The notes under the pieces were generated by a model. It worked only from the letters and a program-made list of their open reading frames with translations. It ran no database searches and was not told where the DNA came from. DNA of 64,000 bases, taken from NCBI RefSeq assembly GCF_032062105.1, contig NW_026940531.1, forward strand, positions 1-64,000, read 5' to 3'. Origin of the DNA: Saccostrea cucullata (taxonomy: Eukaryota). This document shows positions 5,483-35,880 of the stretch, piece after piece; within the stretch, counting starts at the first letter, position 1, and the number at the start of each line of letters is the position of its first letter. A program made the translations under genes and the position numbers.

Positions 5483-5644
5483 GGATGAAATCTGAACAGT
5501 GACATCTTCTTCCCCAGCATCAGTCTAAAAAATTTAAAGTAGTACAAAATACCCGTGGATTCTATTTTAACTGATTTCTCAAAAAGAAATGGAGAAAAAA
5601 CAAGATGTTTTTGTGAAACACTATGCGCCCAGTGCCGTAAAAGA

Positions 5645-11545: not shown

Positions 11546-11763
11546 ATACAAGAGGCCCAAGGGCCTTGAATCGCTCTTCTGATAAATTGTACAACCTATC
11601 ACTTGTATTTAAAGCCTCTAACCCTAGGTATCCTGAGACCAATCAAACTGTGTAAGTTGATGCATTTGGGGTTTTCCAAGAATGTAGACCAAGAAGTAGT
11701 TCTTATTGGCTAAGAATCATCAAACTTTGTCAGGTGGTGCAACTTTGGTCTCAGGATACCTCA
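11546..11763 (-). mobile_element. 3' terminus of the satellite-bearing HINE family, rearranged at the palindrome junction
   Basis: caagaggcccaagggccttgaatcgctcttctga. The subTIR gctcttctga matches the 5' subTIR at 28567 and its mirror near 35870. Satellite monomer pieces follow. Confidence 0.7.
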
Positions 11764-12102
11764 TTTCTCATTCTGACGTCAGACTTTCGTCACTTCAACG
11801 GTTCGGGTATTTCCGATTTTGTCGGAAACTTCCGAGAATTTTCGAATTTCGATCCCGATGCTTGGGAAATGATTTCTTTTTGTTGTTTTGTTTTATTTGT
11901 ATTTCTTTTTTTCTTGAATGATAGACAGTACATGTGTAGGTTTATGATAGTAAATAAACTGCACTCGTCCCAACGGTCGCACCGTAAAACATATTAAAAA
12001 TTTATTCTACTCATTCTTTAACTCCAACGGAGTACAAACTCAAGATTTTTCAAGTATGCTTCAAACCAACCTCAGAGTCAATCTCAAGTGTCGACTGTAA
12101 AA

Positions 12103-13640
12103 ATGGCAGCTTGCAGGGTATTAGTTTGACGCTATCGAAATAAACAGCAGCACAGGCGTCCGAGGTTTTTTTAGAGACCGCTCCAATCCCCTTGAAGATT
12201 TGGACGAGGACGAAGTTTTCGAAAGGTATCGTTTCCGACCTCAGAGGATCCTGTTCATCCTCGGACTTTTTCCCAATCAAGACCCACAGGACGCAACAAC
12301 CCCTTGCCACCACTGCTGCAGTTACTGCTATGCCTGAGGTTCTTGGCCACTGGTGCTATCCACCTTCTCATCGGGGACTCGTTGAATATTTCCCGGAGTA
12401 CGGCCGGCAGATGTATTCGGGATATAGCTTCCCATCTTTCCAATTGTGCCGAAGATTTGTTAGATTCCCCACTGGAAACGACACCTTATCCGTGAAACGT
12501 GCTTTCTCCGCCATTGCAGGGAAGAAAACGAAAGTTGTTGAAAATGACGTCAGAAATTCGATACCTTGTCGTTTCGACTCCCATTAGTTAAGGTCCTATA
12601 ACTATAGTTAGTTTTAAACCCAAGTGAATGAAAGCGTAAATTACCATCAATACAATACTGTTTAACTTTTTTTCATGCAATACTTTGTACCATATTATAA
12701 AAAAAAACAAGAAAAATAAATTAATATTTAAACATTGAATGTGAAATTATATCTGTCCATTAATTGCAGCTCTTAAAAAAATTAATGGACTGTACACTCT
12801 TATTTCATTGAAAGAACCGGGACTCAATATAATTTTGAATACTTTAATGATATACAATAATAAAACAAGCATTCTGAGAGTATTGCATAAGCAATACATG
12901 TCCCCTACCGGGTTCCCCTTTCTCTTCAAGATGTCATTTTTTTAATGTGCAAAAGTCATGTCCAAGGTTAAACTGAAAGATTTTCAAGTTTTAAATGCCT
13001 TAAAACTAATAAATCAATCAACATTAAGACGACAATTCAACACATTTTTCCATCGTCTTTTCATCGCTTCATATTTTTGTCGACAATCGGAAGTTTGCGC
13101 AGTTCGAACCCGATCTTAATTAAGTGATTATGAAATATATTCAAAATGCCATAATTCTTCAAAAAATCAATGCAGCGAAGCGAAATTCAAACTTGATCTG
13201 TAACTCATTAAGATACACTCACGTATCAAAATTCAGCTCAATATCTGCAAGCGTTTAGAAAAAGAAGTGTGGAAAACCAAGTGGGACAGACTGACGGGGA
13301 CAGACAGACGGACGGACGGACGTAGAGGAAACCTATAGTCCCCTCTGGTTTGACCGGTAGGGGATTAATAAGAGAAAGAAAATTATTTATCAAATTTGAA
13401 ATTGTTATATTGTGTAATTAATATTTTATACAATATGTAGTATATATTACAGAGCTTAATAATTTTTTGATTTTAAATAATTGCATTAATTTTTAAGTTA
13501 TCTAGAGAGACCAGTGAGTGTGACACATGTATTTGTTATTCTAATGAAATTTAGGTTTTCCAAATGTCCTTGGATGTTTGGATGGCACATGAAGCATATT
13601 ATGTCAACAGAAAATGCTATCATTCTTTGAATGTACAGGT
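12103..13640 (+). pseudogene. HARBI1-like transposase (mirror copy)
   Basis: Reverse complement of 7330-8877. Exon 2 ttag|gttttccaaatgtccttggatgtttggatggcaca at ~13555. Confidence 0.8.
12864..13369 (-). mobile_element. HINE (mirror copy)
   Basis: Reverse complement of 7600-8101. Confidence 0.75.
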
Positions 13641-14639
13641 AAAAGTATTACGAAAGTTTGATCATCTGGATCTAATATTGAAAGTCATTTAATCTTTTAA
13701 GATAAGGAAATTTTAATGAATAAACAGAAAAAATGATGCATTCAATTAAAAAATGTAAGAGTTGTAAAATATTATATGCTTTAGAAACTTATTTTCGAAA
13801 ATAAAAAAGAAATATAAAGAAGAATATACATGTAGTTACCTATAAGTCATAATGCATATCAGATGCTTACTGACCACATGTAACTGTCTTTTCAATTATA
13901 ACAAAGAAGTTTAAAATATTGTGAGTGCAAATTAACCAGAGAAAACAATCAATAAAGCATGAAAATAATTCAATGATTGTCTTATGACAATTTTTTTTTT
14001 AATTTTGTATTACAAACTCAAGGCTGACAAAACTTAACGAAATATGCATTAATGGCAATGTCAATGCATAAAATAACCTTTAAAATTGCTTCAAAAACAT
14101 CAATATACAAATTGAAAAGGTATTATAAGGATTTTACCTCACATAATTTAAGGATGGTCATAAATTGTGTCGATCCGTTAGAGATCTATGGTTCTTGCTT
14201 AGGAAGCACCGTTACACGATTCCTAGATGTGCATGAACTTTGATAGGAGGAAAAATAAGCCAATTAAAATATGTTGTCCATCATAACACGCTGCTGCTTC
14301 CAAACGGAAGTGTATGAAAAAGGAACCATGTAGACTTGAGAACCAGTCTAAACAGATATGAAAATATTTGACTGGCCTGCCTGTCTGATATCTGATATAT
14401 ACAGGCAAGTGATCAGTAATTGTAAAGAGCCCTCTACCGGCCGCTTTTTGTTTAAAGACAATATAGTTTATTCTCAGTCTTACACTAAGAGTGATGGAAA
14501 ATGATAAATCAATTAACTATGTAATCTAAACTCTGCTGAGTTTTACATTGTTGAGAAGTTATTGTTATTTAATGAAGAATTTGAACATGTTTCTTCTGAA
14601 TGTGGATGTAAAACACCTTACATTGTTGGAAAAAAAACT

Positions 14640-15330
14640 TGAGAAAACAAATGAGCTGTTGTTTATTGACACAGATACTGGTGCTTCATCTTTTTTTTAT
14701 AACAAGAGTCAAGGAAACCCAAGCAAGAGTTGTCATTGACATTGAGGACCAGTGGCCAGATCAAATGCAAAAAAGTTTAAGTCCATACGAATATTTTCAG
14801 GAGATAGATCCCATTTTATGCACTACAGACATTCCCTTCGACGCCACTGGTTTTCACAAGCAGAATCATACACGTGAAAACAATCTAAGTGAAAATCATC
14901 GTCGACTTCTCATAGGTGGTTTACGTGCTAGAAAAATTCTTCTAGTTACACCACTCTTGAAATGGTATCTCAACCATAGAATGGATGTGACCCGCATTTA
15001 CCAGGTGATTGAATATACCCCCAGTAGATGCTTTCGAAACTTTGTGCGCGAAGTGACCAACGACCGTCGCCTTGGAGATACAATTTAGGGATCCATCTAT
15101 GGTAATTTCAGCCGATATATCAAAGCTGAAAGGTCATTCTATCTATAGATCACTTATCATGGATCAGTCTAAACATCAGGAAAGTAAATATGTAAAAGGA
15201 ACTGAAGAAGCCACCATAGAAGTGAATGATACCAAATTCATAAATCTCACCGATCTAGGATACCATGTTTTCGAAATAGAAAAAGCGAGGAGTTGAATTT
15301 CGTATGACCTCCCTGTACAACTTGGTACTC
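14640..15330 (+). pseudogene. Polinton/Maverick-like protein-primed DNA polymerase B fragment
   Basis: RRLLIGGLRARKILLVTPLLKWYLNH...IYQVIEYTPSRCF..FVREVT..RR.GD, then EVND.KF..L..L....FEIE..R...YDLPVQLG. Frameshifted and internally deleted. Confidence 0.7.
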
Positions 15331-15490
15331 TTTTACGGCACTGGGCGCATAGTGTTTCACAAAAACATCTTGTTTTTTCTCCATTTCTTTTTGAGAAATC
15401 AGTTAAAATAGAATCCACGGGTATTTTGTACTACTTTAAATTTTTTAGACTGATGCTGGGGAAGAAGATGTCACTGTTCAGATTTCATCC

Positions 15491-15754
15491 ATGAGGTTTT
15501 ATGTAACTGAAGAGGAATTCAAGTACCTCTATGGATTAGATGTGAAGGAATTTGTCGATGAATTCCACCTCCTTCTGAAAAGAGGTCAGCTGAGGACATT
15601 AGGTAAGTTTGCTTTAGTATTTAGGTATAAAAGCTTTAAACTGACAAGAAAGGTGTATAATCAAGTCTCACACATGTATCAGATACATAACAGAAAATTA
15701 ATCCTATTTACAAAAAAGCATTATATTGAGCATTACTTTATTGATATGTGTTAA
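15491..15754 (+). CDS. 87-aa hypothetical protein next to the pPolB fragment (possible Polinton accessory ORF)
   Basis: ATG-to-stop ORF intact in both arms, protein-like composition, downstream AATAAA at ~15889. Confidence 0.4.
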   Translation: MRFYVTEEEFKYLYGLDVKEFVDEFHLLLKRGQLRTLGKFALVFRYKSFKLTRKVYNQVSHMYQIHNRKLILFTKKHYIEHYFIDMC

Positions 15755-17594
15755 TATCTGTGGATATATAGTATAATTAAAGGGATATGTTTTGTCATAC
15801 ATGTGCATGAATTCAAATATATTGCATTTTTAAATTATTAGGATAGTTCATCCAGAGGAACTATTGTAATTAACGCATGGCATATTTCAATAAAATTTTA
15901 AATTTAAAAAGTTTATTTAATTTTTTTTATATATTTTACTCTGTGCAACAGTGAGCAAAAATTTATAAATCCACGCATGAAAGAAATATTGGCCAGTCAT
16001 AAAGATGATAAGGTAGAAACAAATTGGATGATGCGGATTTAATCCCCCCCCCCCAATTTTCAGGCCCATCGGAGGTTCCAAAAGCAAGGCAAAGAAGCCA
16101 GTACAAGCATACCCGTACTTTCTGGGAAGAAGTTGAGGTAAGAACATTGAAGTATTCTGAGATTCCTTTACCATGTGATACAAAGTTGGTCGGGGGAGAG
16201 GGTCATAGCTATCAGAATGCCAATCTGTTTGTCTGTTTTCTGTTTGTACAATATTATAATGTATGAAACAAGCAATGTACTAAGTATATGAATACAAAAG
16301 AATATTAAGACAGGGTACTGTCAACTCCAGATAAAGGATAAAACTTTCAATTTATGAAGTATGAACATCAAACATTTGTTAAAAATGTCTGAAAATTTCA
16401 GAATAGAGTGAAAGTCTGTATGGTACTCTTTCCTCCTTTACCACTTTTTTCAAATGAATGTTACCTTAATGCAGTCTTTATTGCATAGAACCCCCCACCC
16501 CCAACAACAACAACCAAAAAAAAAAGTTGGCTTCGCCAATCAATTTATAGGTGTACTCTGACATTTTGTTAATGTAACTATTTGAAAACCCTAAACAAGA
16601 TTCAATTTTAGATGCATAATTACACATTTAAAAGCAAAAGATTCACCAATTTACAGTAACTAAGTTGTTTGTTGCTTGCATGCTAGATTTTTTATTCATG
16701 AAATAATGTACATTGTACATGTTGTATATGCTTAGCGTATAAATAGCTTAACACTAATAAAAGCTAAAAGCAGGTGAAACATGTATTCCTTGGAAGTCTC
16801 TAGTTTATAATTATACACAAACAGGATATTTTTTGTTTTAATGCAAAATTGGTCTATAATTCTTATATCTTTATTTAGCTTCTTGAAAATCTCCATCCAG
16901 AGAATGGGTTGCTGAGAGAAGATGAAATGCTTAACACAGCAGCTAAAGAATGGAGACGGCAGGCAGTGTCTGCTGAGTATGTGACGTGTTAAAATTTTTA
17001 TGTTTTTTCTTTGTGATAAAAAGTGTAATATCAGCTATTAGTCTAGCAATAACTCATCTTTAACAAAATGGAATCAATAAACTGAATTGGTAAATTCATA
17101 AGTGTTTTTTTCTTGGTGATAAAAAGTGTAATAATAGCTATCAGTCTAGCAATGTAAAATATTTAATAAAGCATCTTTAAAACTCATTCTATCGTAAGTG
17201 GCATTAACCCCCAGTGAAAATAATCAAACACAAAACCATAGCAGTGAATAGAAATCAATGTTGGTTACTTTCACAGAAAAAGTAAACGTTAATAACCTCT
17301 TTAATTTATTTATCTTTGCCTTTCAAAATGTTATGAATATTTCAAATGATTACAAACTGTGATATTCTATTTTTTAGAATTTAGATTTAAAGATTTCCAT
17401 CCTTAATACTATAGGATTAAATTTTTTACTCTTAAATATCCGTCAGATACATAATACTCTTATATTAAGAACCCTCTCTACACTGCATACTAAAGAGCTC
17501 TGGTTCTATTGTAATTTTTTGCAGTAGTTAATAAACAAAGATGGCATTGGAGTCTAAAGGGGAGGGGGGGGGGGGCGTTGTGTCGTTGTCAAAC

Positions 17595-18035
17595 TAGCCG
17601 TTATGTTTGTGGGATACGATATTCCGGCAACAAGGAAACTGTGCGGGTTTTTGGGCCACACTGGTTGTTCGAAGTGTTTTAAAGAATTTCCCGGGACTGT
17701 AGGAAATAGAGACTATTCCGGTCTTGATAGAAATGAGTGGCAGAAAAGAGAAACAAAGGACCATACTTCTCGTATTGATAAAGTTTTGGGAGCTAAAACC
17801 AAATCTGAAAAGTCGAATTTGGAGAGTGATATGGGTGTTAGATTTTCAGACCTAAGTTGTCTGAGTTATTTTGACCCCATCCGAATGTCGAAATTGACCC
17901 CATGCATAATATGTATCTTGGGTCAGCAAAGCATATGATCAAAGTTTGGTTATCTACAGGGACAATTCTTGAAGATTCTTTTGAAAGCATTCAGAAAAAA
18001 GTTGACCCCATGGAAACACCTGCATCACTGGGAAA
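17595..18035 (+). pseudogene. CMC/EnSpm(CACTA)-like DDE transposase fragment
   Basis: DIPATRKLCGFLGH..GCSKC.KEFP...DYSG...GVRFS.L..LSYFDPIRM, then a frameshifted DPMHN..LG..KHM. Confidence 0.65.
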
Positions 18036-18254
18036 AATACTATTTCTGACGACTTGTTAATTGAGTGCCTATCCTTGTTTGGGACAGGCGCGTGTCCCTA
18101 ACTGGAAGAGTAAGGGTTGGTGCTTGTGTTAGTGTTGTATTTGTTGTGCAAATTTCTACGTTTTCTGAAACAAACTTTTTCATTGTGGTGCCATTTAAAG
18201 CAGTTAGTGTTAAAAGCTGGACATGTTTCTCTATTTCTACATGACTCAACACAA

Positions 18255-18970
18255 TATTACAATATTTGCATCTGAAGCTCTGTTGTTCATTGGGTCTGTC
18301 ATCAGTCTGTCCGCGTGGTTGGTACTGGGGGCGTCTGCCAGGTTGGTTGTTCCAGCGTTGTTGTTGCGGTGGTTGGCCGGCCACATGGAGAGCACTGATT
18401 TCGGCTTTAATGTTTTTGGTTAGTTCCGTCATCTGGGTAGCTAACACGGTACACAAGTTGGCAAGGCTGGCTCCACTGTTGGACGTCTGTGGAGCACTTT
18501 GAGGCTGAGTGTCACTTAACTCCACTTGAGTCTTTGAAAGGGCATTTCTCAGTTCTTAAAATGTCTTTGGTTCACGGGCCAAAACTCTTCCACGCCACGG
18601 AGGTAGGAGACCTGATGCAGTGGCCTGAACTTTGTAGTATTCAGCAATGTCATGTATCATGCCAATGCGTTCGGCTCTCTCTAGGTATTGGTCAAGTGTT
18701 TCACTTGTATCCTGCCGAATTACCATGAGAGGCATTCCATACATTATGGGTTGAAATCTTTCTGTTAGTTGCTGCTTAAATGTTGCAAGGTAATTGCATG
18801 GAGGCATGGTTTGGTACCATGTGCTTGCACTCCCTTCTAGGGCACAAGGAAGTAAGTCCAGGATTTTCTGGTCATTGTAATTATTGAACTTCTGCCATGC
18901 GTCCATTTTAGAAATCCATATCACTGGGTTTCAGAACCATTGAACGTTGGGAGGCTTAATCCAGTAGCCA
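18255..18970 (-). pseudogene. Gypsy-like gag fragment (mirror copy)
   Basis: ORFs 18556-18924 and 18040-18525 mirror 2045-2809. Confidence 0.7.
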
Positions 18971-20118
18971 TAATCACTGGGTCACACTGAATGGTTTCTA
19001 TCACTGGGTCACACTGAATGGTTTCTATCACTGGGTCACACTGAATGGTTTCTATCGGTGGGTTGTCAGTTTCCTCTGTATTGGTGTCAGTATTGATGTC
19101 AGCTGTTATCGTCTAACTTTGGGTTGACGTTTCTTCGGGCTGTTGCACAGTGTCCTGCAGATATGTTTGTTCTTCTGCAGATGCAGTTTGTCAGGTCTTT
19201 ATGGTATAGTTGATTGGTCTGTTATTTCTCATCTGTCCTTATTAGTTTAAAGACGTAAACTTTATTCGTCTCCTGTCCTATTTTCAGGTCATTACATCAG
19301 CAAACAAAAATATCACCAAAAACACGGTGATACATTACTCAGCAGTGAGGGACCTTTCTTGTTCGCTGATCCTTAGGCCCCGTGTCTTCAGCGCCTCAGT
19401 AAACCGTTCTTCTCAAACATGTTCAAAATATACAATATTTAATTGCATAGTTTTTGTGAAAAAAAAAACAAACAAATATATTCTACATTTAGGGTTCATG
19501 TACTTGCACGCAGGGCCCGTGTCTGTCTGTAGCTCCTTAGCATATTTTTTTTTGCTCCGACGTGCGATACTGATTCTCTCAACACAAATTTTAAACATAC
19601 ACATAGAAATTATTTATTATTGTGATAATCCAAGTCTACACTTATGGGTATTGTAATCTGAACGCATTTAAGGAGGAAAACATACCCAAAAAATCCTTAA
19701 TAGGAAAGATAACCAATGCTGACAAACTGGCAAAGTTACGCCATCCAAATATTACATCCTAAAAGCTTCAAATTTCTCAAAGGACTACATCATACTATTA
19801 TTACATGTACACTGAATTTAAATTTTGTTAATGGACATTTTTAAAACCAGCTCAATATTAGGTAAATCGTCGGTCAAACGTTTTGATTGAAAAGTAATAT
19901 TATCCTCTGCCACCTATACGCACGACGATCGTGCTAATTACTAATATCCGCACGTTATTCATACGACGGTCGTGCTAATTATAAATGGTATTCGCAGGAC
20001 AAACTTCAACATTTATTTATATCGATTCCTTAAAGCCTTTTTTACACGCTCCGATTTGTAAGATGTGACTTGCAACATCTTCCAAATTAGATGGTTAAAA
20101 TAGGAAAATTATAATTTT

Positions 20119-20701
20119 ATGCTTGAGTTTCTGATTGACAATATCTATGTGGCTAACAACCAAGCTATATGATAAACGTGATGACTTTAACTTTTCTATC
20201 GTCAACTTCCCTTACTTATGCAGCAATATACCTTCATCACCTGCATACAGAGTATTTATATCTCAGTTGATTCGATACGCTAGAGCATGCTCTACGTATG
20301 AACAATTTCTTAAACGAGGTAAATTATTGACAAGCAAGTTGATGAAACAAGAATATCAACAGTCTCGTTTAAAGTCATCATTTTGTAAATTCTATGGTCG
20401 ATACAATGACCTTTTCAACAAATACAATTTATCATTGAATGAAATGCTGACTGACGTTTTTCATACCAATTGTTTGTCCATTATTTATACACTGAATTGA
20501 CCACGGATTTTTTTCCGTTATTTCCTGATTATGACAACGAGCACACGGCGGGTGTGACCGGTCGGCAGGGGATGCTCACTCCTCCATGGCACCTGATCCC
20601 ACCTCTGAAGTTTCGGAGGTCCGTGTTTGCTCTGCTCTTATTTTGTATATTTGTTTAATGGACGTTGAGAGTGAATACTGTTCGTTATTTCCATATCCTT
20701 C
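20119..20701 (+). mobile_element. Naiad-type Penelope-like element 3' fragment, truncated at the duplication junction
   Basis: TKLYDKRDDFNFSIVNFPYLCSNIPSSPAY.VFISQLIRYARAC (PLE RT thumb). The ORF ends without a C-terminal GIY-YIG domain. Confidence 0.8.
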
Positions 20702-21869
20702 ATAGAGATGGAAATGAAGTACTTATTGCAAAAGGTATCACAAGTGCTTGTCCATATGCTATGTTTCTGCGTTATACAAAAGAGGCTGAAATTGATTTAT
20801 GTTCTGATCATTTTCTTTTTAATCCCGCTTTCAGAAGTAATGGTTTTTCAAAATTGATATTTAAAAACAAGAAGCTTATTTATACTGCAGCAAAGCAATA
20901 TATTGATACTTTTATAAAATATTGGTCTCCATTCTCTCAGATCAGGGGGTGCAACTGCGGCTGCAAATGTTGGTGTTAATGAAAGGTTTTTACAAAGGCA
21001 CAGGCGTTGGAAATCGATGTCTAGTAAAATGTTTATGTCAAAGACTCTTTAGAAAAAAGATTACATGTAACGAAACAATTGTTGTTGTAAGTTATTTATA
21101 TATATATATTTTTTTTCTAGTCCCTTTCTCTCCCTTTCTTTGGTTATGTCTATTGTCAACCTGCTCGGTGCGCTACAATGCACATTAAGGTGTTAATTGT
21201 GTTTATATATAAAGGTGCATAGTGAAATGAAGTGTTGACTTACATTTTTTCGCGTTACGAAGTATAGCGAAAAATAATTGTCCTGACGACATGTAAACGA
21301 ATACGAAAGTGTGGTGTTACTAAGGTAAAATTGCTATGTAGGTTTCAGCCAATGAAATGTTAGTATTGAGAAAAACGTGTTCGATTGAATATACGGGTGG
21401 TTAGTAAGGGTTCACTTTCTAGCGCACGCTTTCCCGAGCACGTCGTGTTTTAAATTTTGTTTTTTAAATACAATAGTTGAATTTATAATTTTTTTTCAAA
21501 TTAAGAATAAGCTTTTTGGATGTTTTAAAGGTGAGTGAGGGTCCGCCACTCAATTTTTTCGCTTACTCTGCATTTGCCGCGGATACACAGGTTTCCATAA
21601 TTTTTTCAAAATATTTTTTATCTATGGTTTTTCCTGGGCGGCAGAGGAGGCTCTAAGGCTTAGATTCTATTGCATCAATATAAATCTCGATGTGTGTATA
21701 TGTTTTTACCTGTTTGTTTGTTGGCAAAATGTTATATCAGAACTGCTTTGTTTGTATGTTTGAAAATATTCAATACAATAAACCTGGCGCCAACCTACTC
21801 GATGCGCTACAATGCATATTAAGGTGTTAATTGTGTTTATATTTAAAGGTGCATAGTGAAATGAAGTGT
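20702..21869 (+). mobile_element. Tyrosine-recombinase retrotransposon (Ngaro/DIRS-like) 3' end
   Basis: YR C-terminus (G.EVLIAK....CP..MF.RY, H..RSGGATAAAN, RWKS, KDSLEKRL). Split direct repeat at 21157-21235 and 21791-21869. Confidence 0.7.
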
Positions 21870-22529
21870 GGACATTTATAAACTGGTAAGCCAAACACCC
21901 AAGCTGTCATACCAATAAACCTGTCAGAGATACCCAACTTGAGCTTGCGGTTAATTAAGTTTCCCCAGGTTTTAAGGTGTTAATTAATAGCCAATGGCGA
22001 TAATGTGTGAAGTCATGACGCCAGGTGTGTTCAAAAGAACGAAAAAATCACTGCACTTCGAGAAAAGCCAGGTAAAAAAGGGCTTGGGACTTTGAATATA
22101 CTGCGACATAAGTAGGGTAATCGAGATTACCGTGTTCGAGATATCAGTATAGTTTTTTGAAATATATATGTAGAGAAAACGGCCGGGACCGGCGATCGAC
22201 TTAGACAGAAGCGGGGTATTCGTGATCCCCTTTGACATAAGCTATACTGTGATAAATGCGAAAATATTTTTATATGATTATAAATACCCTTATCATGATT
22301 CTTTTGAATTAAAATCAATATAATGCAAAAGACTTTATTTTTCAATATATTACCAGTTTTTTTTAATTATGTATTCATTTAAAAATTCTCAGTTTTATAC
22401 AATGTTAGGATACAGCGACAGCTTCAACCTGATATAGCTCAAGTTGGAGTGACCGAAATGTTGGACCAAAGCATCAATGAATGGCAAAGATCGACATGCA
22501 GAAAAAGAACTGAACTTTGAGGTATGTTG

Positions 22530-23295
22530 CACTTCGTATAATATTATTACAAGTATCTTTGGTTGAAGGGATTCAAGATTGTGAAAATGAAGGCCCACGA
22601 CTCTTTCAAGGGAGAGATGATAAATAATAAGTGTAAAATTAATCACACTGTTTGAAAAAAAATCTGAAGAACCACTGGGCCAAGAGAGATAAAACTTACG
22701 CGGAAGCATCCTCAGTTAGTGTACAATCAGATTTCTTCAAATCATGACCCCCAAGGGTAGGGTTGGACCCCAACAAAGTTGTAGACAGGAATATATAGGA
22801 AAAAAATCTTTATAAACATACATCTTGAAAACAGCAAAGTTATGATAGATCATATTTATGTGGAAGCAGCATCATGTGTTTAAAATCAAGTTTGTTCAAA
22901 TCTTGACCCCTGGAGGGAGGATAATTAATCAAAGCTAAAACCTTTTTTAGCATATAGGTCACAGTCAAGATCATTGATCTAGGTGTCATTTGAAAGAACT
23001 TAATTAGTAGAGTATGCATACCAAATGTGAAGTCTCTATCTCCTATGGTTAAAAAAATATGACCATAGTTCAAAAAAGCTATTTTTAGCATAAGGTCACA
23101 GGAAAGGTCATTGCACTTGGTACCATATGAACAAGCTTAATATGTGGAGTATGCATACCAAATATGAAGTCTTTTACTCTCTCAGTTCAAAAGTTATGGT
23201 GAAGGTTAAAGTTGACAATAGAGAGACAAACAGATAAACAGACAGGCAGGACAAAAACAATATATGCCCTATCAATGGATTCTGGCGCATAAAAA
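22530..23295 (-). mobile_element. Degenerate HINE/satellite-type repeat fragments
   Basis: Repeated ggtcac..tcattga..gtatgcataccaaat.tgaagtct units, a (GACA)n microsatellite and a terminal gcataaaaa. Mirrored at ~56185-56945. Confidence 0.45.
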
Positions 23296-24877: not shown

Positions 24878-27200
24878 AACTGAAAGTGAACTGAAAAAAG
24901 TGAAGAAAACCTTGCAATTAGATGTTCAAAGTTTGGATGCCAGGATGGAAGAACTTTCTGAGTCTGCCAAAAATAAATTAAGGCATGGACATCTTAAAAA
25001 ACTGCAAATGTTTGCCAATGAAAGGCAGTACATTCTGTCCTTACTAAAGAAATATTTTGGTAAAAATATGTTTCTTTAAATTCTTTTATTTATTGCTGAA
25101 TACAGTTGAACATCATGATCTCTAGCCTCAATATCTCAAAGTTTATGTATATGTAAAATTGCGTTTTTGACTCCCAACTATCTAAACTGTTATTAGGGCC
25201 CCGCAAGGATTTGCGGGTGCCCTATAGTAATCACTCTGTATGTCCGTCCGTCCGTCCGTCTGTCTGTCACTCTTCCGTCCACAAATTTTCTGTTTTTTTT
25301 CTAATAACTTTTTTTATGGTTGCCCAATCAAGTTTAAATTTGGTATGGTAGTTTAATAGGCAGAAATACAAATTTTTATGCTAAGTTTGATTCTCTACAT
25401 CTTCTAGTTTGGAGCTGGGGTGGTGGGGTAGATTCCTTAACTATGCATAAGAATGAACAGGCAACATTTTTTATGGTTGCCCAATTAAGATCAAATTTGG
25501 TACGGTAGTTCAGTAGGCAAAAATACATATTTTGATGCTAAGTTTGGTCCTCAATGTCCCTTGGTTTGGAGCTGGGGTGGTGGGGTAGATTCCTTAACTT
25601 ATATAAGAATGCATTGGCAAAGAGAGATAACTGCTGAAGATGTTCCCATTCAGTAAACTGGATGCAACTAGGAGTCCCATGGGATTAATTAGCTTTCCTC
25701 CTGAAGAAAATCCAGAGCATTATCTTTATCCGTCACATTGAGATTAATTACCACCTCTGTCTGCAAATGAAGTTTGCTTTGAAGTTAAATCAATTTGGAA
25801 TGCTATGAACACTCTGAATTGTGGATTTAAATATAATTTTTTATTATATATTTTTGTTTGATAGTTATGATTTCATTGAACCCCAAAAAAAGAAATAGAT
25901 TAAAGAAGATTTTTTGATTTACCAGGGTACTTTTTTTTTCACTTTTTTTCCTTTTTTTTTTAAAATATATTAATTCAAGAATGTTTTTAATGTAGTTGTA
26001 TAAAAACCCCATTCTATCATTAATACTGAAAACGTTCTTATTGTAATTTTAGAAGAAAATGATGAGAGAGGTACAATTAATCCCTTGGGTTAAATTATCT
26101 AGCCTGCTGCAGAAAATTTAGTAGGCTTCTCTTTATCTGTCACTTTAAGATTAATGAAAACCTTTGTCTGCAACTGCTGTTTGTTTGAAGTTAAGGTCAA
26201 GCCTTCATGATATTGAAGGCTGGCATTTTATATAACACAAGATTCATAATTGTTTAAATATAAATTCAATGTTAAGTTGTTCTTTACTGCCTAATGTAAA
26301 TACAATAAGATTATTTTCAGGAATTATGTTGAAATTTTAAGAATACAGTTGCTGTTGCTTTTTCTTTGTACATTTATTAATCATTCTGTAAGCTGCACCC
26401 TTTTAATTCTACCCCATGGCGGGGCCCTTCCTGACTGGTCAGTTCTCTAGTTATAATATGATTTTCCTTTTTTGTTTCATAATTAGAGAAGTTGAGATTT
26501 CATACATGTACGTATACTTCTAGTTGGGAGATTCCCTGAATTCCTCACATATTATGCCATCAATTTTAGTGATGACAAGTTTTCAACACGTTCTTAGAAC
26601 TTTTTGAGTGGTATCTACATGAAAATGAAAACTAGTCGCTTTAATATTTAAAATCAGTCAATTCATGTGTAAAAATGTGGGGGTTGTACATTTTTTGGAA
26701 TGTTTAGTTATGAGCACTTATATTAATCATGTTTAATTTACAACGTAAACTCATTCTGACGAAACAAAACATATGAAAAGTCTGAAACAAAGTTGTTTTG
26801 TTAAATAAAGGATATCAAGGTTATTTCGTACTAGATCCCAGTGACTTCATTATAACCAAGTTTGTTGTAGGCAGTGGAACATAAATGCAACATTTAATTT
26901 TGTTTGTTCTTATATAATTTGTACAGATGGACAAGAGATGACAAAAAGAATTTCGAAGCAGTTGTCTTCAAACAGTGAGAGAATAAAGAAGTGTCTCAAA
27001 CAATTTAATACCAACTTCAGTAAAAGTTTTTCCCTTGCTGAAGTCAGCATACCAACTGCTGCTATTTACAAAGATTTAGAAACAACAGCCACCCTAAATG
27101 ATGACCAAATCAAGGCTTGTCAGGCATACTCCCTCCACCAGGTAAATCAAGGCTTGTCAGACATACTCCCTACACCAGCCACTTGGCAGGAACAAATGAC
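24878..27200 (+). pseudogene. Spliced gene fragments resembling a KDZ (Zisupton-type) transposase C-terminus
   Basis: Exon ~24878-25059 (...NERQYILSLLKKYF|gt) joins exon ~26926 (DGQEMTKRISKQL...IKKCLKQFN). Family assigned from recalled similarity only. Mirrored at ~52380-54700. Confidence 0.35.
25190..26452 (+). mobile_element. HINE-type non-autonomous Helentron
   Basis: subTIRs agggccccgc / gcggggccct, (GTCC)n, an internal dimer of ~150-bp units and a 3' hairpin ctgac-tg-gtcag. Confidence 0.75.
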
Positions 27201-28561
27201 AAAAACTGATATAAAAGCTTTGCTCAATTATGCTGATAATACCAACCATAAAAATCTCAATTATGTTGATAATACCAACCAAAAATTATTAAATTTCATT
27301 GTTGAATCCGAACGAAAAATTAGGTATCAAATTGGGCGTAAGCACATGCTTACATACGCATCTCAATGTGCTTCTTTGAACTTCTCAGAAAGGTCTAATT
27401 AAAACTAGAAAATTTTTATCCCGTAAAAGCATTTTTAGATTCCAATGTTTATTGACATTATATGAAATTAGAGATGATTTATGGAGCTTTCCAAAGAACC
27501 TTAAAGCAAATTGAGAGACAAATAATGAAAATTGTTGCATGAAAATATTTAATTTTCAAGATTCATTTAAAGACTTTTTGAATCAAAGTATAAATAAAGA
27601 GTTGCTATTCCTTGCTGAGGGTCGGAGTCAATTAATATCCGTATTTATTTTCATTTATTTTCAAAATATTTAGACAATTTGTTACTGCAGACCTACATGT
27701 TGAACCATTATTGGACACCCCCCCCCTTTCTTACGGAAAATCAGTTTGATAACTTAATGAAAGACATACAACACCAGATGAAAGACCAATAAACCATCTG
27801 TGAGGAAAGAACTCTTTCCGACTGAGGAGCCACCAGTGGTTTTTTCTTTGGAATCGGAGTACGTAAAAAGTAGATACAAGTATAAAAAAGAATGATTTTT
27901 ATTGAAAATAACTGATTTCTGTATGTCCTGTTCATTTTTTCCAATACCTAGAGAGCATGCAAAATCAATCGGATGGTTGGATGACATCGAGCTTGAGTCA
28001 GTCTCCGAGGCCTCAAATGACGCTGGGGATGTAATAGTCATTTCTGACGACAGCTCGGATGATGATAAGTTGGGCGTCTCAATGCCCGACCACAGATGTG
28101 CATTTTGACGTTTTAATAGATAATATATTCTTTCACATACGATATCAAGAGTTGAAATTTTATCAGCATATTTATCTTTTTTTCAGACAGATATTACTTA
28201 ACTACGAAGAGGACCTGATTGAAAAAAAATATTCAAATAAAAAAGACATTAAAAAACTTCTCAAAAAGGATCGCCAAAGTGAACGAGGAGCTCGATGGAG
28301 TACAGTTCACCTCGCATTCCCTCTACTCCGCCGAGTGAGGATACATGAATAACAAAAATAATAATTTATGACACCTTTTCCCCCGATTCTGTATTACTAA
28401 TTAATCGAGTACTTGATGTGTTTTTTGTGTGAAACATACATATCCAGGGAGCAGTTACACCGCCGGGACATTGTATGTGTCTGTGATTAGAAATATCTCT
28501 TCGTTGTGTATTTTTAGATTTCTCAAAAAAGAAGGTTCAAACATTGAACATTAAGTGCCCT

Positions 28562-30292
28562 TTTTAGCTCTTCTGAGCCAAAGGCTCAAAGAGCTAATGC
28601 TATGGCCATTTGTGCGGTGTGCGGTGTGCGTTAACTTTTTAGAATATGGGCCATAACTCAAGAACCCCTTTGCCAATCAGTACCAAATTTGCCACAGGGT
28701 ATCCTTGGCCCAAGGGCTACCATTTATACTAAAATAAGGGTTGGGACCCTAACACAAGGGGAGATAATCAGGAAAACAAAACCAAAAGTACTAGTTGCTA
28801 AAAAATCTTCTTCTCCAGAACCGCCAGGCAGATTTTCACCAAACTTACATACAAGGATCAGGATATGTTGAAGATAAAAAATTGTTCAAGGCATGACCCT
28901 GGGGCAAAGGGCGTGGCCTCAAGGTCACTTTGAAGTTGACCTAAATTTACAATTAATAAAAATGTTTATATTTTGCTTACTATACGGGCTAGGATCATCA
29001 AATCTTGTAAGTTGATGCATCTTAAGACTTCACATCCTGTTAACTCAAAAGTAGGTCACGGTGACCTACTTTTTAAATTTTGCGGGCATTTGTTTTCAAA
29101 TTGATTTGAAGGCATATTTTGGAAACATTAAAGCCTAAGATCATGAAACTTAGTCAGTTGATGCATCTTGGGTCCTTCAACAACGTCAACCAAAAAGTAG
29201 GTCACCGTGACCTACTTTTTGAACTTTATGACTTAACCTTTTTAAAACATTAAATCCCATTATTTCAGGCACTAAAAGGGTTAGAATCATCAAATCTTGT
29301 AAGTTGCTGCATCTTGGGACCTAAAAACATATTTAAGAAAAAGTAGGTCACTGTGACCTACTTTTAAAATTTTGCAGGCATATGTTTTCAAATTGTTTAA
29401 AAGGCATTTTTTGATTACCTTCAGACCTACAATCATTTAACTTGGTCAGGAGATGCATCTTGAGACTCTGAAAAATGTCAACCAAAATGTAGGTCACGGT
29501 GACCTACTTTCGACATTTTATGGCTATATATAAGTATTTTAGGTATTTATTGGCTTAGAATCATCAAACTTTGTGAGTTGATGCATCCTGGGTTTTCGGA
29601 GAGTGACGACCAAAAATTAGGTCACGGTGACCTATTTTTGACATTTTATGGCTATATTTCAGTATCTCCGGTACTTATTGGCTTAGAATCATCAAACTTT
29701 GTCAGTTGATGCATCTTGGGTTTTTGGAGAGTGACAACCAAAAATTAGGTCACGGTGACCTAATTTTTACATTTTATGGCTATATTTAAGTATCTTGGGT
29801 ATTTATTGGCTTAGAATCATCAAGTTTTGTGAGTTGATGCATCTTGGGTTTTCGGAGAGTGACGACCAAAAATTAGGTCACGGTGACCTAATTTCGACAT
29901 TTTATGGCTATATTTAAGTATCTTGGGTATTAATTGGCTTAGAATCATCAAGTTTTGTGAGTTGATGCATCTTGGGTTTTCGGAGAGTGACGACCAAAAA
30001 TTAGGTCATGGTGACCTAATTTTGACATTTATGGCTATATTTAAGTATTTTCTTTAAAAATTGGCTTACAATCATCAAACTTTGTCAGTTGATGCATCTT
30101 GGGTTTTTGGAGAGTGACGACCAAAAATTAGGTCACGATGACCTAATTTCGACATTTTATGGCTATATTTAAGTATCTTGGGTATTTATTGGCTTAGAAT
30201 CATCAAATTTTGTGAGTTGATGCATCTTGGGTTTTCGGAGAGTGATGACCTAAAATTAGGTCACAGTGACCTACTTTTGACATTTAATGGAT
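28562..30292 (+). mobile_element. HINE with an internal satellite array (146-bp then 128-bp units), 3' end missing
   Basis: 5' end ttagctcttctgagccaaaggctcaaagagc and a (tgcgg)n microsatellite. Palindromic core aggtcacggtgacct at 29053, 29199, 29345, 29491, 29619, 29747, 29875, 30003, 30130 and 30258. Confidence 0.8.
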
Positions 30293-30293
30293 A

Positions 30294-33200
30294 TAAAGAT
30301 AAAAGATAAAGATAAGCTTTATTTAAAGTCAGTATGGTAGTTAAAAAAGTAACACAAGCTCTAATGAGCTTTTGACTGACATGATTAACATATACATAAC
30401 AATAAAACAAAGAAAACATGCAGCACTATATAAACATAGAATTCCTTGCAACAATACAGCACACAGTCTAATCTAAAGGACATCGTCAGTTAAAGATACA
30501 TATAAAAACACACATGTATAGACACATAGACAATACAGTACAGATGCATAGAGAAAGCACAGGTTTACATTCATAAGTCACAACATTACAAACATGCGAA
30601 CAGCACATCGACAGAAACATAAAAGAACATAACAGGAAAAAAAAATAGATACATAAGAAGAGACAAACTGACACACATGCACAGACACACAAACAAAAAG
30701 ACACAACTTACCTAGTGGAGCAGGCTGTACACTCACAGTCCTTACCGCTCCAAGAGGCAATCAAAGATTTAAACTGTAAAAAATTGGTTTGACTTTTAAA
30801 ATGTTCAGGTAAGGAGTTCCATAAAACTGGTGCTGCATATCTAAAAGACATTTTGCCATATGATGTAGTTCTCACTTTTGGTATTTCTAAAATGTTTGAA
30901 TATCTAAAATTATATGTCACTTTCTTAAAACTCACTAAGTCTGACAGACATCTAGGAGAAAGGTCATGTAAAATCTTAAAACATTCCAGAGCCATACTAC
31001 GCATTCTTCTAATCTCTAATGATGGTAATTTTGCCTTAAGTAGTAATGACTCATAGCTACTCTCCAAATCTTCATAAATAAAACGTAAAGCTCTTTCTTG
31101 AATTTTCTCAATTTTCCTGGTATTTTTCTTGGAGCAGAAATGCCATACAAGAGGACAGAAATTAAAATTTGACAAAATAAAACTGTAAAATATTGTAATT
31201 TTGTTTGCCCGAGTTAATACTGAGCCAATGCGTTTTAACACATTTAATTGTTGAGCAGCTTTTTTACAGATATTACTAATATGTACATCAAACTTGAGCA
31301 TAAAATCAATATCAATTCCCAATAATTTGACAGTCTCATTACACAAAATCTCTGCACCATCAATTTTAAGTACAGGTTTCTTATCAAAAGTTTTCTTACC
31401 CAAGGCAACTGCCTGAAATTTAGATGGATTGGCTTGCATACAGTTTTCTTTAAACCATTTCAATAATACAGAAATTTCATCTTGTAAAGTATTTATCAAA
31501 GTGTCAAAATCCTTATGCCAGTATGCTTAAGAATTATCATCTGCATAATTATATAAAGACCCATTCTTAATGAAATAAAAAATGTCATTAATAAAAACAT
31601 TGAAAAGTAGTGGTTCAAGGATGGAACCTTGTGGTACTTCCTTTTTAATGCCAACCCAACTACTGACAACTCCCTGAAGTTTCACTTGCTGAAAGCGCTC
31701 AGACAAGTAGCTTCCTAGAATGGATACAGAGTTTGGAGATAAACCATAAGCTGAGAGTTTACTTAATAGTATGTCATGAGGCAAACAATCAAAAGCCTTA
31801 GAGAGGTCCATTAAGATAGCAGCAACATGTAAGTTCTGATCTAAAGCCATTTTCCAGTCTTCAAGGAGTCGCAGTAGTGTAGTTTGGCATCCATGACCTT
31901 TTCTAAATGCACAAAGTGCGTTGTTAAAAATACCATCAAAATAGTCAGAAAGTTGTACACATAAAACCTTTTCAAAAACCTTTGACACGGTTGGTAAAAT
32001 ACTAACAGGTCTATAATTACTTTTTAACAGAGGGTCTTCTTTTTTGTATAAAGGGATGACCTGAGCTTGTTTAAGTCTATCAGGAAAAGTATCCTTTTGT
32101 ATGGATTGGTTAACAAGAATAGAAATATGTTTACTCAAAACAGGTGCTCCAAATTTCAGAAGTTTAGCTGATATTGTATCTACACCAGTGGATTTCTTAA
32201 CATTTAGTTTGTTTATTAATCTGGTCACTTCTTCTTCATTAGTTTTCTTAAAATCAAATGTCTCAGTAAAAGCAAAATTTTCCCTAATGGCATTTAGACT
32301 ACAATGATCTTTTTCATTAAAAACTACATCTTTCCCTATTTCACTAGCCACATTAGCATAAAATTCATTAAAAGTGTTGCAAGTTTCTATTGGGTCATTT
32401 AAAATCTTGTCATTTTCACATAAAAGAATTGTATTTTCTCCGGACTTTGATTTTTTCGATAAGAATGGTTTGATTGTTTTCCAAAAATCTGAACTTTTTT
32501 GTCCCCCTACACATCTTTCTTGAAAATAGTTTCTTATTGATACCCTTTTCAGTTTTGTAACATAATTCCGCTGTTTCCTAAACTCTTCCCAATTATTATC
32601 TGTCTTACACTTGTCAAACTTGTTTTTCAGCATTTGCTTTTTGTAGATAGCCCTTCTTAATTCACAGTTCATGTATGGTACACTATTTTTATGTTTTCGC
32701 CTTTTTTTCCAAGGTGCATGTTTGTCTGCAACATTTACAAATGCTTTTTCAAAATTTTGATAATTTACATTTACATCTGAGGCATCATTTGCTACTGGGG
32801 GTGTTTCAATTTTTTGTAAGTCAGAAATATAGGATTGTACATCAAAGCTCTTAAAACTTCGAGTTAAAAAAACAGAATTTTTAGAATTTGTGATACTGGC
32901 CTTGATAAAAGTTCCAATAAGATTGTGACAATCGCTTACTCCAGTATTAAAATTTAGGGTGTTTTTACATACTGCTTGATCAGATGTCAATATCACATCA
33001 ACAAGGGATGGTTCACAACCCTTTTTAAAACATGTTGGTGATTTAATAATATTACAGATCAAAAATGTCACATATTTCAGCTAGACATTTGGATTTCTCT
33101 TCAATCATCATATCAAAATTCAAATCTCCAAAAACCATGATTTTTTCATAAAAAGAGGTACTTTTTTCAAGAATATTGCACATAGATTTGTTAAAACAGA

Positions 33201-34413
33201 GCTCATTGAAAGATGGAGGTCTATATACACACAGCAAAATCCACTTAATTTTACCTAGTGTCACTTCCATAGTGATGGATTCTAAATCTCGATCCTCAAG
33301 GTCTGTTCTTCTCCTAGCTGGAATATCTGATCGCATAAATACTGCCAGCCCACCTCCATGCCTTGTTCTGTCACGTCGAAACAGTTTATAACCTTCGACT
33401 GCAAAAATAGCATCAAGGAACGAAGAGTCTATTTTCGTTTCGCTAATGATGAGACAGTCAACCAATTTATCAATCAATATGTCTTTAATTTCGTCAAATT
33501 TATACCTTAGACTGTTAATATTTAAGTGACACACCAAAAAGTTATTTAGGTTTTGCTTCCTTGCTACTCGTAACGTCTGCCAGATGTCTGCATCTTCCAG
33601 CTGATCGGTCTCTGAAATTGGGTCACTGGGTTGCGGGTTTTGTATACTCGAATCGTCGAGCCCGATCGTAATGCGGGATACGGGATCTACAGCATCTGCA
33701 GTCGTTGAGGATGAATATGGTATATTGTTTGTACACATACTGCAGGACCATCGACTGATCATCTCTGGATTGATTCCATGCTTGGATGTGACACATTTTA
33801 AATGACATCTAGAACTGCATAATGCACAGACCAGCATTTTTTTATTATTTTTTCTGGTTTGTTTTTAACACACAGAACAAGGAAATTTTATTGGTCCTGG
33901 ATTTGTGGCGACATCACCAGCAATTAAAATTCGAAGAATAAAAAGATATTTGTAGGCTGAGACTCTCGATGTATTGTTTTCATCGTGGCGGGAAATAAAC
34001 AAAGGAATTCTCGGGGAATAAAGTTTATACAGCAAGTAATCGTCCAAATAAATACCGTATATAAACCTGGACAGGAATAAATCCTCCACACGTGAAGTTG
34101 CAACTTCACTGGAGTTCAGTTGCTCATCTGCTGGTGTTATTCTGCAGAACAAGGTCGTGATTGTCAGAGCGATTGTCCACTGAACTGACCAGTCCGCCAT
34201 ATTGTTCCATTCTTTGTGGCAAGTTTTGTTGAAATTGTCCACCAAAAATTTTAAAAGTTAACAGACGGACACACATACAGCTACTATAACAATACCTGGC
34301 CATAAGTGAGTCATAATTTGATTTTTCCACTTTATATTTCATTGAAAAATGCTTTTTCCTAAAATACAATACACCATGTACACTGTAGCAGTATTATTTT
34401 TGTTGATATATAT
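30294..34413 (-). mobile_element. CR1/L2-group LINE (2A-like, PHD, APE, RT), near full-length but disabled
   Basis: ORFs 33865-34245, 33052-33837, 31527-33071 and 30708-31499 form one polyprotein broken by two in-frame TAAs and one frameshift. Motifs: HLNINSL, GDLNFD, SDCH, NYRPVSILP, MDLSKAFD, VPQGS, YADD. 3' AATAAA and (TATCTT)n tail at ~30295-30323. Confidence 0.92.
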
Positions 34414-34418
34414 TGTCG

Positions 34419-35880
34419 AAATGTCGAAATTAGGTCATCGTGACCTAATTTTTGGTCGTCACTCTCCAAAAACCCAAGATGCATCAACTCACAAAGTTTG
34501 ATGATTCTAAGCCAATTTTTAAAGAAAATACTTAAATATAGCCATAAATGTCAAAATTAGGTCACCATGACCTAATTTTTGGTCGTCACTCTCCGAAAAC
34601 CCAAGATGCATCAACTCACAAAACTTGATGATTCTAAGCCAATTAATACCCAAGATACTTAAATATAGCCATAACATGTCGAAATTAGGTCACCGTGACC
34701 TAATTTTTGGTCGTCACTCTCCAAAAACCCAAGATGCATCAACTGACAAAGTTTGATGATTCTAAGTTAATAAGTACCGGAGATACTGAAATATAGCCAT
34801 AAAATGTCAAAAGTAGGTCACCGTGACCTACTTTTTGGTCGTCACTCTCCGAAAACCCACGATGCATCAACTCACAAAGTTTGATGATTCTAAGCCAATA
34901 AATACCTAAGATACTTATATATAGCCATAAAATGTCGAAAATAGGTCACCGTGACCTACATTTTGGTTGACATTTTTCAGAGTCTCAAGATGCATCTCCT
35001 GACCAAGTTTAATGATTGTAGGTCTGAAGGTAATCAAAAAATGCCTTTTAAACAATTTGAAAACATATGCCTGCAAAATTTTAAAAGTAGGTCACAGTGA
35101 CCTACTTTTTCTTAAATATGTTTTTAGGTCCCAAGATGCAGCAACTTACAAGATTTGATGATTCTAACCCTTTTAGTGCCTGAAATAATGGGATTTAATG
35201 TTTTAAAAAGGTTAAGTCATAAAGTTCAAAAAGTAGGTCACGGTGACCTACTTTTTGGTCTTCTTTATTTGAGGACCCAAGATGCATCAACTGACTAAGT
35301 TTCATGATCATAGGCCTTAAAGTGTCCAAAATATGCCTTCAAATCAATTTGAAAACAAATGCCCGCAAAATTTAAAAAGTAGGTCACCGTGACCTACTTT
35401 TGAGTTAACAGGATGTGAAGTCTTAAGATGCATCAACTTACAAGATTTGATGATCCTAGCCCGTATAGTAAGCAAAATATAAACATTTTTATTAATTGTA
35501 AATTTAGGTCAACTTCAAAGTGACCTTGAGGCCACGCCCTTTGCCCCAGGGTCATGCCTTGAACAATTTTTAATCTTCAACATATCCTGATCCTTGTATG
35601 TAAGTTTGGTGAAAATCTGCCTGGCGGTTCTGGAGAAGAAGATTTTTTAGCAACTAGTACTTTTGGTTTTGTTTTCCTGATTATCTCCCCTTGTGTTAGG
35701 ATCCCAACCCTTATTTTAGTATAAATGGTAGCCCTTGGGCCAAGGATACCCTGTGGCAAATTTGGTACTGATTGGCAAAGGGGTTCTTGAGTTATGGCCC
35801 ATATTCTAAAAAGTTAACGCACACCGCACAAATGGCCATAGCATTAACTCTTTGAGCCTTTGGCTCAGAAGAGCTAAAAA
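34419..35880 (-). mobile_element. Satellite-bearing HINE (mirror copy, 8 cores)
   Basis: Cores at 34432, 34559, 34687, 34815, 34943, 35089, 35235 and 35381. 5' end ggctcagaagagctaaaaa. Confidence 0.8.

Follow-up and report, generated by a model that had tools for sequence, protein, structure and literature searches.

Two back-to-back fold-backs with ~10-kb inverted duplications at a HINE locus of Saccostrea cucullata

Introduction

A 3' end and a 5' end of a minus-strand HINE type stand apart in a contig of Saccostrea cucullata (NW_026940531.1), with inverted copies of the neighbouring DNA between them. Was one HINE divided here by a rearrangement, and what broke it? The original prediction held that it was, and that the element had seeded the inverted duplications either through HUH Rep nicking or through hairpin-induced fork stalling.

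Results

Self-comparison of the window, the whole 64-kb stretch analysed, gave the inverted-pair layout A x H3 / A- / B- C- D- H5- / LINE / H5 D z C B, in which a minus sign marks an inverted copy. The locus is two fold-backs, back to back, with inverted duplications of ~10 kb, and its features are as follows.

957..9216, plus strand: arm A, outer copy, an inverted match to 11764-20116 (96.6%, BLAST)
9217..11545, no strand: DNA x, single-copy (no second copy in self-BLAST; junction mapping)
11546..11625, minus strand: HINE 3' module, with subTIR at 11573-11582, palindrome at 11554-11567 and T-rich flank; element end near 11549
11626..11761, no strand: left fold-back centre, a 17-bp exact inverted repeat (11626-11642 / 11745-11761) flanking a 102-bp reversed monomer piece (11643-11744)
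11764..20116, minus strand: inverted copy of A, its 11764 end linked to 11761 by a 2-base insertion
20117..20118, no strand: 2-base insertion at which the two inverted arms meet by their far ends
20119..28564, minus strand: inverted copy of B, C and D, without the 15-kb Helentron; empty site near 27646
28565..30295, plus strand: HINE 5' part with its array, inverted copy; 138 bp of it (30158-30295) are unmatched in the outer copy
30296..34418, minus strand: right fold-back centre, a full-length LINE with 218 bp of extra 5' DNA (Pfam; tblastn of relatives)
34419..35876, minus strand: HINE 5' part, outer copy, with subTIR and inverted repeat, then 146-bp and 128-bp hairpin-bearing monomers
35877..36788, plus strand: arm D, outer copy, differing from the inner one by 43 substitutions in 911 columns
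36789..51929, minus strand: Helentron z, autonomous-type (Rep, helicase, AP endonuclease; two frame breaks), in the outer arm only
51934..59360, plus strand: outer copy of C and B as a single unbroken arm, with a 98-bp indel and 99 substitutions in 7416 columns

The locus has five junctions (11642/3, 11761-11764, 20116-20119, 30295/6 and 34418/9), and its inverted arms are 10,788 and 10,177 bp long. DNA x and 11546-11625 are missing from the inverted arm (2409 bp absent). The joint at 20117..20118 interrupts a retroelement reading frame that continues across 59360 in the outer copy, and the joint between A and B is thus new. A division of B and C into distinct segments was rejected, only the 98-bp indel lying between them, and so was the repeat at 30-393 as a sign of B preceding A; with 11-13 differences from the B copies and a different flank, it is a separate insertion. 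Except for this repeat copy, the window sequence on either side of 957-59360 had no match in the insert, and in the arms no host gene with a known function turned up.

Divergence between the arms averaged 1.3-2.9% and was patchy (dispersion 3.6-8.2), as between alleles, the outer and inner copies of A differing by 120 substitutions in 8225 columns. In outer A, 37 of the 54 gaps fell within 2926-4374, 0 at homopolymers, and a frame open in the inner copy was broken there, suggesting thin read support in that part of outer A. These raw-read-like deletions in one arm keep an assembly artefact among the rival explanations, namely two haplotypes joined by fold-back or chimeric long reads; the patchy, allele-like divergence would fit it, as would the heterozygosity of 1.3-3.2% reported in Pacific oyster (PMC7992393). 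However, an artefact would require three false joins. The junctions are clean and carry short insertions and an exact repeat, one of them ends at the LINE tail, and a plain second haplotype cannot yield the B-to-A joint. We consider an artefact quite unlikely.

The termini of the HINE were recovered on both sides. The minus-strand 5' terminus lies at 35863-35876, with a T-run up to 35880, and its inverted repeat pairs with the subTIR (35840-35880 folds at z -3.27). The 5' and 3' subTIRs match exactly over 10 bp, and over 12 bp with one mismatch. The motif GCTCTTCTGA is present in three copies in the 64 kb (11573, 28567 and 35865), only in HINE pieces or their inverted copy; 0.09 would be expected, and 0 of 100 shuffles gave three. 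The predicted minus-strand 3' terminus, with a subTIR matching the 5' end, was thus borne out by an exact match that is rare in the window. The 3' module could be aligned to the 3' terminus of Helentron z, at 36789 (score 43; the highest of 300 shuffles reached 35), and after its subTIR a palindrome with a 5-bp stem is present, the folding of which alone is within chance (z -0.80). T-rich DNA lies on both flanks, and no empty site was found within the window.

No further copy of this HINE family was found in the window, and the other Helentron ends there (51916-51929; 63870-63910) carry a different subTIR. A shared subTIR indicates a family rather than a copy, and two separate HINEs of the same family might flank a unit present in three copies, the middle one inverted (DUP-TRP/INV-DUP or ODIRA-like), and this middle copy would later have lost the B-to-A DNA. 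The window is blind to DNA beyond its own ends. It would nevertheless need two breaks in a family with no other copy in the window plus a large deletion, and the outer flanks match the insert only via the separate repeat copy. We judge this explanation very unlikely.

The central tandem arrays have periods of 128 and 146 bp. Mapping of array and junctions agreed with the prediction that the element halts mid-monomer at 34419, and an 8-bp tandem duplication (34414-34429) lies at this cut. Roughly every monomer carries one hairpin with arms of 8-15 bp; of the 38 palindromes of this kind in the window, 19 belong to the two array copies, and a single monomer folds at z -3.02. Both inner breakpoints had been placed in a palindrome-rich element, which is true of the hairpin-rich array; however, 11546-11763 contains no hairpin with arms of at least 8 bp and a loop of at most 8, and there are more than two junctions. 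None of the five is centred on a monomer hairpin, the nearest (34419) lying 8 bp outside the hairpin at 34427-34451.

The left fold-back centre (11626..11761) folds as a single hairpin (z -6.14). Its inner piece, 11643-11744, is 77-88% identical to the monomers and matches them only in the opposite orientation (score 60, against 17 in the same orientation; best of 200 shuffles 29), and the strand switches at 11642/3, within the HINE. Removal of 11764-34418 had been expected roughly to re-form a single element; the result is not collinear, 11643-11744 lying backwards. The naive join of 11546-11763 to 34419-35880 was rejected, as orientation flips at the seam. The stretch 11764-34418 also contains the third HINE piece (28565-30295), which extends 138 bp beyond the copy ending at 34419, and the 4.1-kb LINE block.

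With the reversed piece taken into account, the element can be rebuilt as 1829 bp in one orientation throughout, and only then does the array have a single orientation. The foldback offsets are 102 bp (left) and 138 bp (right); each pair of adjacent parallel breakpoints is joined to itself, the right pair through the LINE block. The two long ends are in the correct order and 34 bp apart in monomer phase, a proximity expected about 1 time in 4 by chance with a 128-bp period. Whole monomers may be missing between these ends. The idea of one HINE split by rearrangement was therefore retained on the reversed spacer, monomer phase and arm offsets, although naive deletion fails to rebuild it, and on the sequence a single divided HINE appears to be the most economical reading.

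Continuity across the element was also sought in its flanks. The degenerate exon run at 10470-10865, left of the element, had 0 protein matches among 1.84 billion representatives, and for the exons at 36344-36661, on its right, 0 of 65 candidates matched. Three relatives of the C-arm protein reach neither flank region, one match at E ~8 being noise. Comparison of x with the DNA of D, C and B gave no clear signal; two of eight comparisons scored 2-3 points above the best of a set of only 30 shuffles, in AT-rich sequence.

Alternatively, tandem duplication of 957-59360, or its circle, may have come first, followed by inversion or by re-entry of an inverted circle via the HINE array of each copy. 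In its segment order the insert is circularly permuted relative to the locus, a signature of circle-mediated duplication (PMC7188851), and the arm divergence and 2.4-kb loss would become older differences. However, two breaks within ~270 bp of the same position would be needed in a unit of >20 kb, and the junctions lack long homology and are not at palindromes, making this route unlikely.

The LINE of the right centre, which was absent from the original prediction, encodes PHD, AP endonuclease and RT domains (start codon 34200, frame end 30708), and we take it to be CR1/L2-type. Its short tandem-repeat tail begins at 30296, exactly at the junction, and lies in antisense orientation against the longer arm's 3' end. 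No target sequence duplication was seen beside it; CR1-type LINEs are not known to make such duplications. The 218 bp of DNA 5' of the LINE start include a 32-bp match to another HINE family, and such extra 5' DNA goes beyond plain retrotransposition. Decay of the LINE (two stops; 1.2-1.5%, with an interval of 0.15-5.3% that is too wide for dating) overlaps the arm divergence of 1.3-2.9%. Full length, and a tail that adjoins the longer arm in the polarity required for target-primed reverse transcription (TPRT), make the LINE the best suspect for the break, ahead of the HINE.

The same single break might instead have come from the HINE hairpin array, by fork stalling or hairpin cleavage, or by chance, the LINE arriving later or being copied in during repair. 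The hairpins recurring in each monomer and their folding favour this, a hairpin with a 15-bp stem is a foldback hotspot in yeast (PMC7467729), and a copied-in block would fit the extra DNA beside the LINE. Fork stalling, as originally proposed, is thus possible, but no junction is hairpin-centred, the left centre has no such hairpin, and later entry of the LINE sits poorly with a tail exactly at the junction. We regard this explanation as possible but doubtful.

Helentron z was rejected as the source of the HINE 3' piece, as its subTIR differs; its own 3' end was missed by the 3'-end search pattern, the spacing there being different. The breaks lie ~95-200 bp from the HINE 3' end and ~1.46-1.6 kb from the 5' end, and all five junctions are away from element termini. 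Helitron transposase cuts at element ends (PMC5876387), and the predicted HUH Rep nicking is thus unsupported. A Helentron Rep that nicked the HINE and began the inverted duplications could have come from the autonomous-type element 0.9 kb away, and imprecise junctions and aberrant cleavage sites are reported for Helraiser (PMC5876387). Nevertheless, the HINE has kept both of its termini intact, the Helentron beside it carries another subTIR and is lacking in the inverted copy, and no circle junction of element ends occurs at the locus, making Rep nicking extremely improbable.

Discussion

Considering these results, we lean slightly towards one double-strand break in the HINE array, followed by reciprocal foldbacks of both ends, and infer the following order of events and cause. 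The ancestral locus would have been A x HINE D C B, with a single HINE of ~1.8 kb. One double-strand break may have occurred in its monomer array; resection would have removed 100-140 bases from both ends, each of which then fused with its own sister copy, through breakage-replication/fusion or hairpin self-priming. The resulting inverted arms of 10.8 and 10.2 kb would then have broken or stopped, and been joined to each other. Later events, or recombination with other alleles, may account for the point differences, the 15-kb Helentron and the loss of 2.4 kb beside the left centre. As a cause of the break, insertion of the right-centre LINE by TPRT would be the likeliest, and in it we place about half of the confidence given to the single break; otherwise another cause may have acted, with the LINE arriving later.

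Tentatively, a non-L1 LINE entering a HINE hairpin array in the mollusc germ line may have caused one break, both ends of which folded back within a short replicated stretch, the product being rescued as two paired, heritable palindromes of 10 kb. If the LINE reading is true, the near-equal arms would indicate a replication bubble centred on the element, and retrotransposon-made reciprocal foldbacks would extend from tumours to natural animal genomes. As a heritable invertebrate case involving a different LINE clade, with junctions resolved to the base, the locus would show that the same route yields palindromic segmental duplications in natural populations. Further cases could be searched for by their signature, a LINE tail placed on the longer of the two arms at a fold-back centre. 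Naming rolling-circle elements a cause of palindromes from this one locus would be premature.

Double fold-backs have so far been described mainly in cancer genomes, and reciprocal and LINE-bridged foldbacks are known from tumours and cultured cells. Among titles and abstract openings, with most subscription journals outside the scope, none described a bivalve double fold-back made by a Helitron or a LINE. In PCAWG, 23 instances of reciprocal foldbacks were attributed to breakage-replication/fusion (PMC12807874). As in those, two junctions here face away from one point, each joining adjacent parallel breakpoints; unlike those somatic human cases, this one lies in an assembled invertebrate genome, with aged ~10-kb arms joined together and offsets of 102 and 138 bp. 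The ~10-kb length of both arms falls outside the published reciprocal-foldback model.

L1-bridged fold-back inversions (PMC7058536; 10.1101/2024.12.14.628481) likewise hold a retroelement inside the junction, with its tail on the longer arm, and a plain foldback is possible on their reciprocal end, as here. In contrast to them, the present LINE is of PHD-APE-RT type, full length, with a tandem-repeat tail and extra 5' DNA. Fold-back inverted duplications (PMC3907307; PMC7467729) share the single-copy spacer, short or no microhomology and some junction insertions, but usually comprise one fold-back with terminal loss or translocation, and human spacers are 766-70,466 bp, against 102 bp here.

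DINE-1/HINE elements at Drosophila duplication breakpoints are treated in PMC4067079 as transduction or duplication of gene fragments, not as back-to-back fold-backs within an element. The subTIR variant of the present HINE is absent from the 11 listed Cg_HINE elements of Crassostrea gigas, and four monomer probes had 0 matches in the Cg_HINE array table (both PMC7492417). The HINE nevertheless shares with Cg_HINE the 5' subTIR and inverted repeat, central array, 3' subTIR and palindrome, and T-rich site, its ends resembling those of group 1 (PMC7492417). In the published oyster HINE arrays the orientation relative to the flanks never changes (PMC7492417), whereas the array of the present element switches orientation.

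Arrangement of the inverted arms

Self-BLAST of the AT-rich, transposon-dense window returned four long inverted matches, B and C forming a single arm interrupted by a 98-bp indel. Two inverted arms of 10,788 and 10,177 bp are joined to each other in the following order.

Order of features across the window (A to D, arm segments; minus sign, inverted inner copy; HINE, non-autonomous Helentron)
957–9216, outer A
9217–11545, single-copy DNA (x)
11546–11625, HINE 3′ piece (H3)
11626–11761, left centre
then A-, up to the middle junction (20116–20119)
then B-, C- and D-
28565–30295, H5-, inverted copy of the HINE 5′ part and array
30296–34418, LINE block (y), right centre
34419–35876, H5, outer copy of the HINE 5′ part and array
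35877–36788, outer D
36789–51929, minus strand, 15-kb Helentron (z) with Rep, Pif1 helicase and AP endonuclease frames
51934–59360, outer C and B

Helentron z occurs in the outer arm only, the inner arm having a clean empty site within a T-run. Aligned bases differed between arms at 120/8225, 99/7416 and 68/2373 positions, patchily so (dispersion 3.6, 8.2 and 5.7, respectively). The closest named relative of a protein in arm C is from the oyster Saccostrea echinata (70% identity; 91% in a second exon), from which the DNA is taken to be that of an oyster. KDZ-type transposase C-terminal exons, truncated before the end, lie at 52230–54677 (minus strand) and 24876–27351 (plus strand), and their relative has PF18758, PF18802 and PF18803. 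The 3′ piece of one young retroelement (~97% alike) occurs at 30–393, 20208–20701, 23754–24246, 55330–55822 and 58778–59271, representing three independent insertions, two of them duplicated along with the arms and standing face-to-face 3 kb apart. Arm A carries a polymerase-like frame (14612–15088, plus strand), presumably resembling a Polinton-type protein-primed DNA polymerase and having no Pfam match, and a gag-like frame (18040–18930, minus strand) with a weak Retrotrans_gag match. Within x, a diverged array of ~137-bp units (9757–10260) adjoins an apparent terminus at ~9740–9757, which we take to be Harbinger-type. Fragments at 60178–61789 (minus strand) resemble integrase SAM-like and RNase H-like domains, at scores short of the curated cut-offs, and suggest a DIRS-type retrotransposon.

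The middle junction links the end of B (20119) to the start of A (20116) through two inserted bases. A retroelement frame that we assume to be Penelope-like from its motifs (no Pfam match) runs unbroken across 59360 in the outer copy, and the B-to-A joint is therefore new. The repeat at 30–393, which might have signalled that B precedes A, is a separate insertion.

Misassembly of the locus was also considered. Of the 54 gaps in outer A, 37 lie within 2926–4374 and none at homopolymers; these dense 1–2-bp deletions, confined to one arm, interrupt a frame that is open in the inner copy, and the cluster looks like unpolished long-read error. It may simply reflect reads mapped to the other arm, but it leaves misassembly as an improbable alternative. 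Allele-like divergence is not decisive, because recombination between an outer arm and a normal allele can occur.

The two fold-back centres

Both HINE termini lie where the original prediction had placed them. Their 10-base subTIR occurs three times in the window (0.09 expected), only in these HINE pieces, and none of the 11 Cg_HINE entries in Table S2 of PMC7492417 has it. Since this rare subTIR is common to the two pieces and distinct both from that of z and from that at a third end (near 63900), they are assigned by sequence to one family, which has no other copy within the window. The third end, at 63870–63910 (minus strand), is the 3′ terminus of another HINE that continues past the window edge.

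Deletion of 11764–34418, predicted to re-form the element, does not do so: 11643–11744 matches the monomers only in reverse (score 60 versus 17 forward; best of 200 shuffles, 29). Because array orientation relative to the flanks is constant across all elements studied (PMC7492417), this reversal is a scar. An exact 17-bp inverted repeat (11626–11642/11745–11761) flanks the reversed 102 bp. The right copy and the reversed piece together read as natural monomer sequence; the left copy continues into the HINE 3′ module. The left centre is a fold-back whose arms enclose a single-copy spacer, like human inverted duplications reported in PMC3907307. Past it, the inverted arm jumps to A via two inserted bases, 9217–11625 being absent. 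A Harbinger-like transposase start near 12100 is severed by the left junction.

At the right centre, diagnostic monomer variants fix the register at 34419 = 30157; the inner arm extends 138 bp beyond the outer and contains internally one extra 128-bp monomer. The intervening LINE has PHD, AP endonuclease and RT domains, relatives covering it through the C-terminus. Its start codon lies at 34200, and its coding sequence contains two in-frame stops as well as one frame break. Its tandem-repeat tail starts at 30296, abutting the longer arm at that arm's 3′ end and running antisense to it, the polarity that target-primed reverse transcription gives. The 8-bp tandem duplication on the far side (34414–34429), of a kind present at 0.56% of 5000 random positions, was spotted post hoc among five junctions. 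Plain retrotransposition does not account for the 218 bp from the start codon to 34418, in which 32 bp match the 5′ module of z (score 48 versus 44 for the best of 300 shuffles). LINE decay (1.2–1.5%, interval 0.15–5.3%) is compatible with an age equal to that of the arms, though it cannot prove it.

The long ends of both inverted arms are correctly ordered, with a gap of 34 bp in monomer phase, and were assembled computationally into 1829 bp of single orientation. By itself, the monomer-phase argument for one element is weak, and direct tests of adjacency between the HINE flanks found nothing. A single ancestral element is favoured by economy, because a two-copy origin calls for two independent breaks within this family plus a further deletion. 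The split HINE is probably right in a corrected form, marking a single break with two fold-backs.

Origin of the break

The first frame of z contains a coding tandem repeat (45051–45856, 51 bp × 15.6 copies) and also matches Herpes_teg_N, a match we take to be OTU-like; the element has two frame breaks, possibly read errors. In subTIR, inverted repeat, microsatellite and 3′ palindrome, z agrees with the entries for Cg_HINE_1 and Cg_HINE_2, and it may therefore be their autonomous partner; a search of C. gigas reportedly found no autonomous element (PMC7992393).

The original prediction had the HINE seed the inverted duplications through HUH Rep nicking or hairpin stalling. Helraiser transposase, from a canonical Helitron rather than a Helentron, is reported to cut single-stranded element ends (PMC5876387); here, Rep nicking finds little support because every junction is internal and both termini are intact. 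The monomer hairpins are real, accounting for 19 of the 38 palindromes in the window, and stems of this kind are reported to be capable of directing foldbacks in yeast (PMC7467729), but none of the junctions has a hairpin at its centre. As 8.8% of the ancestral duplicated stretch is HINE and rolling-circle elements are described as abundant in oysters (PMC7992393; 10.64898/2026.02.10.705023), one break within it is no evidence of enrichment.

The LINE is more likely than Helentron machinery to have caused the break. Replication of resected break ends followed by fusion between sisters is reported to leave adjacent parallel breakpoints, with 23 reciprocal foldbacks counted in PCAWG (PMC12807874). 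A retrotransposon-extended end is described as giving a foldback with insertion while the reciprocal end can yield a plain foldback (10.1101/2024.12.14.628481), and L1-bridged fold-backs are reported in tumours (PMC7058536). The evidence here, from the assembled sequence of one locus, fits this model point by point: offsets of 102 and 138 bp, the LINE tail on a long end and a plain foldback opposite. The model does not cover the rescue, in which both inverted arms stop after ~10 kb and are joined; we infer that a replication bubble surrounding the break could produce this outcome. As far as the literature surveyed shows, the setting is new, though closer examples may exist; the kind of event is already known from cancer genomes.
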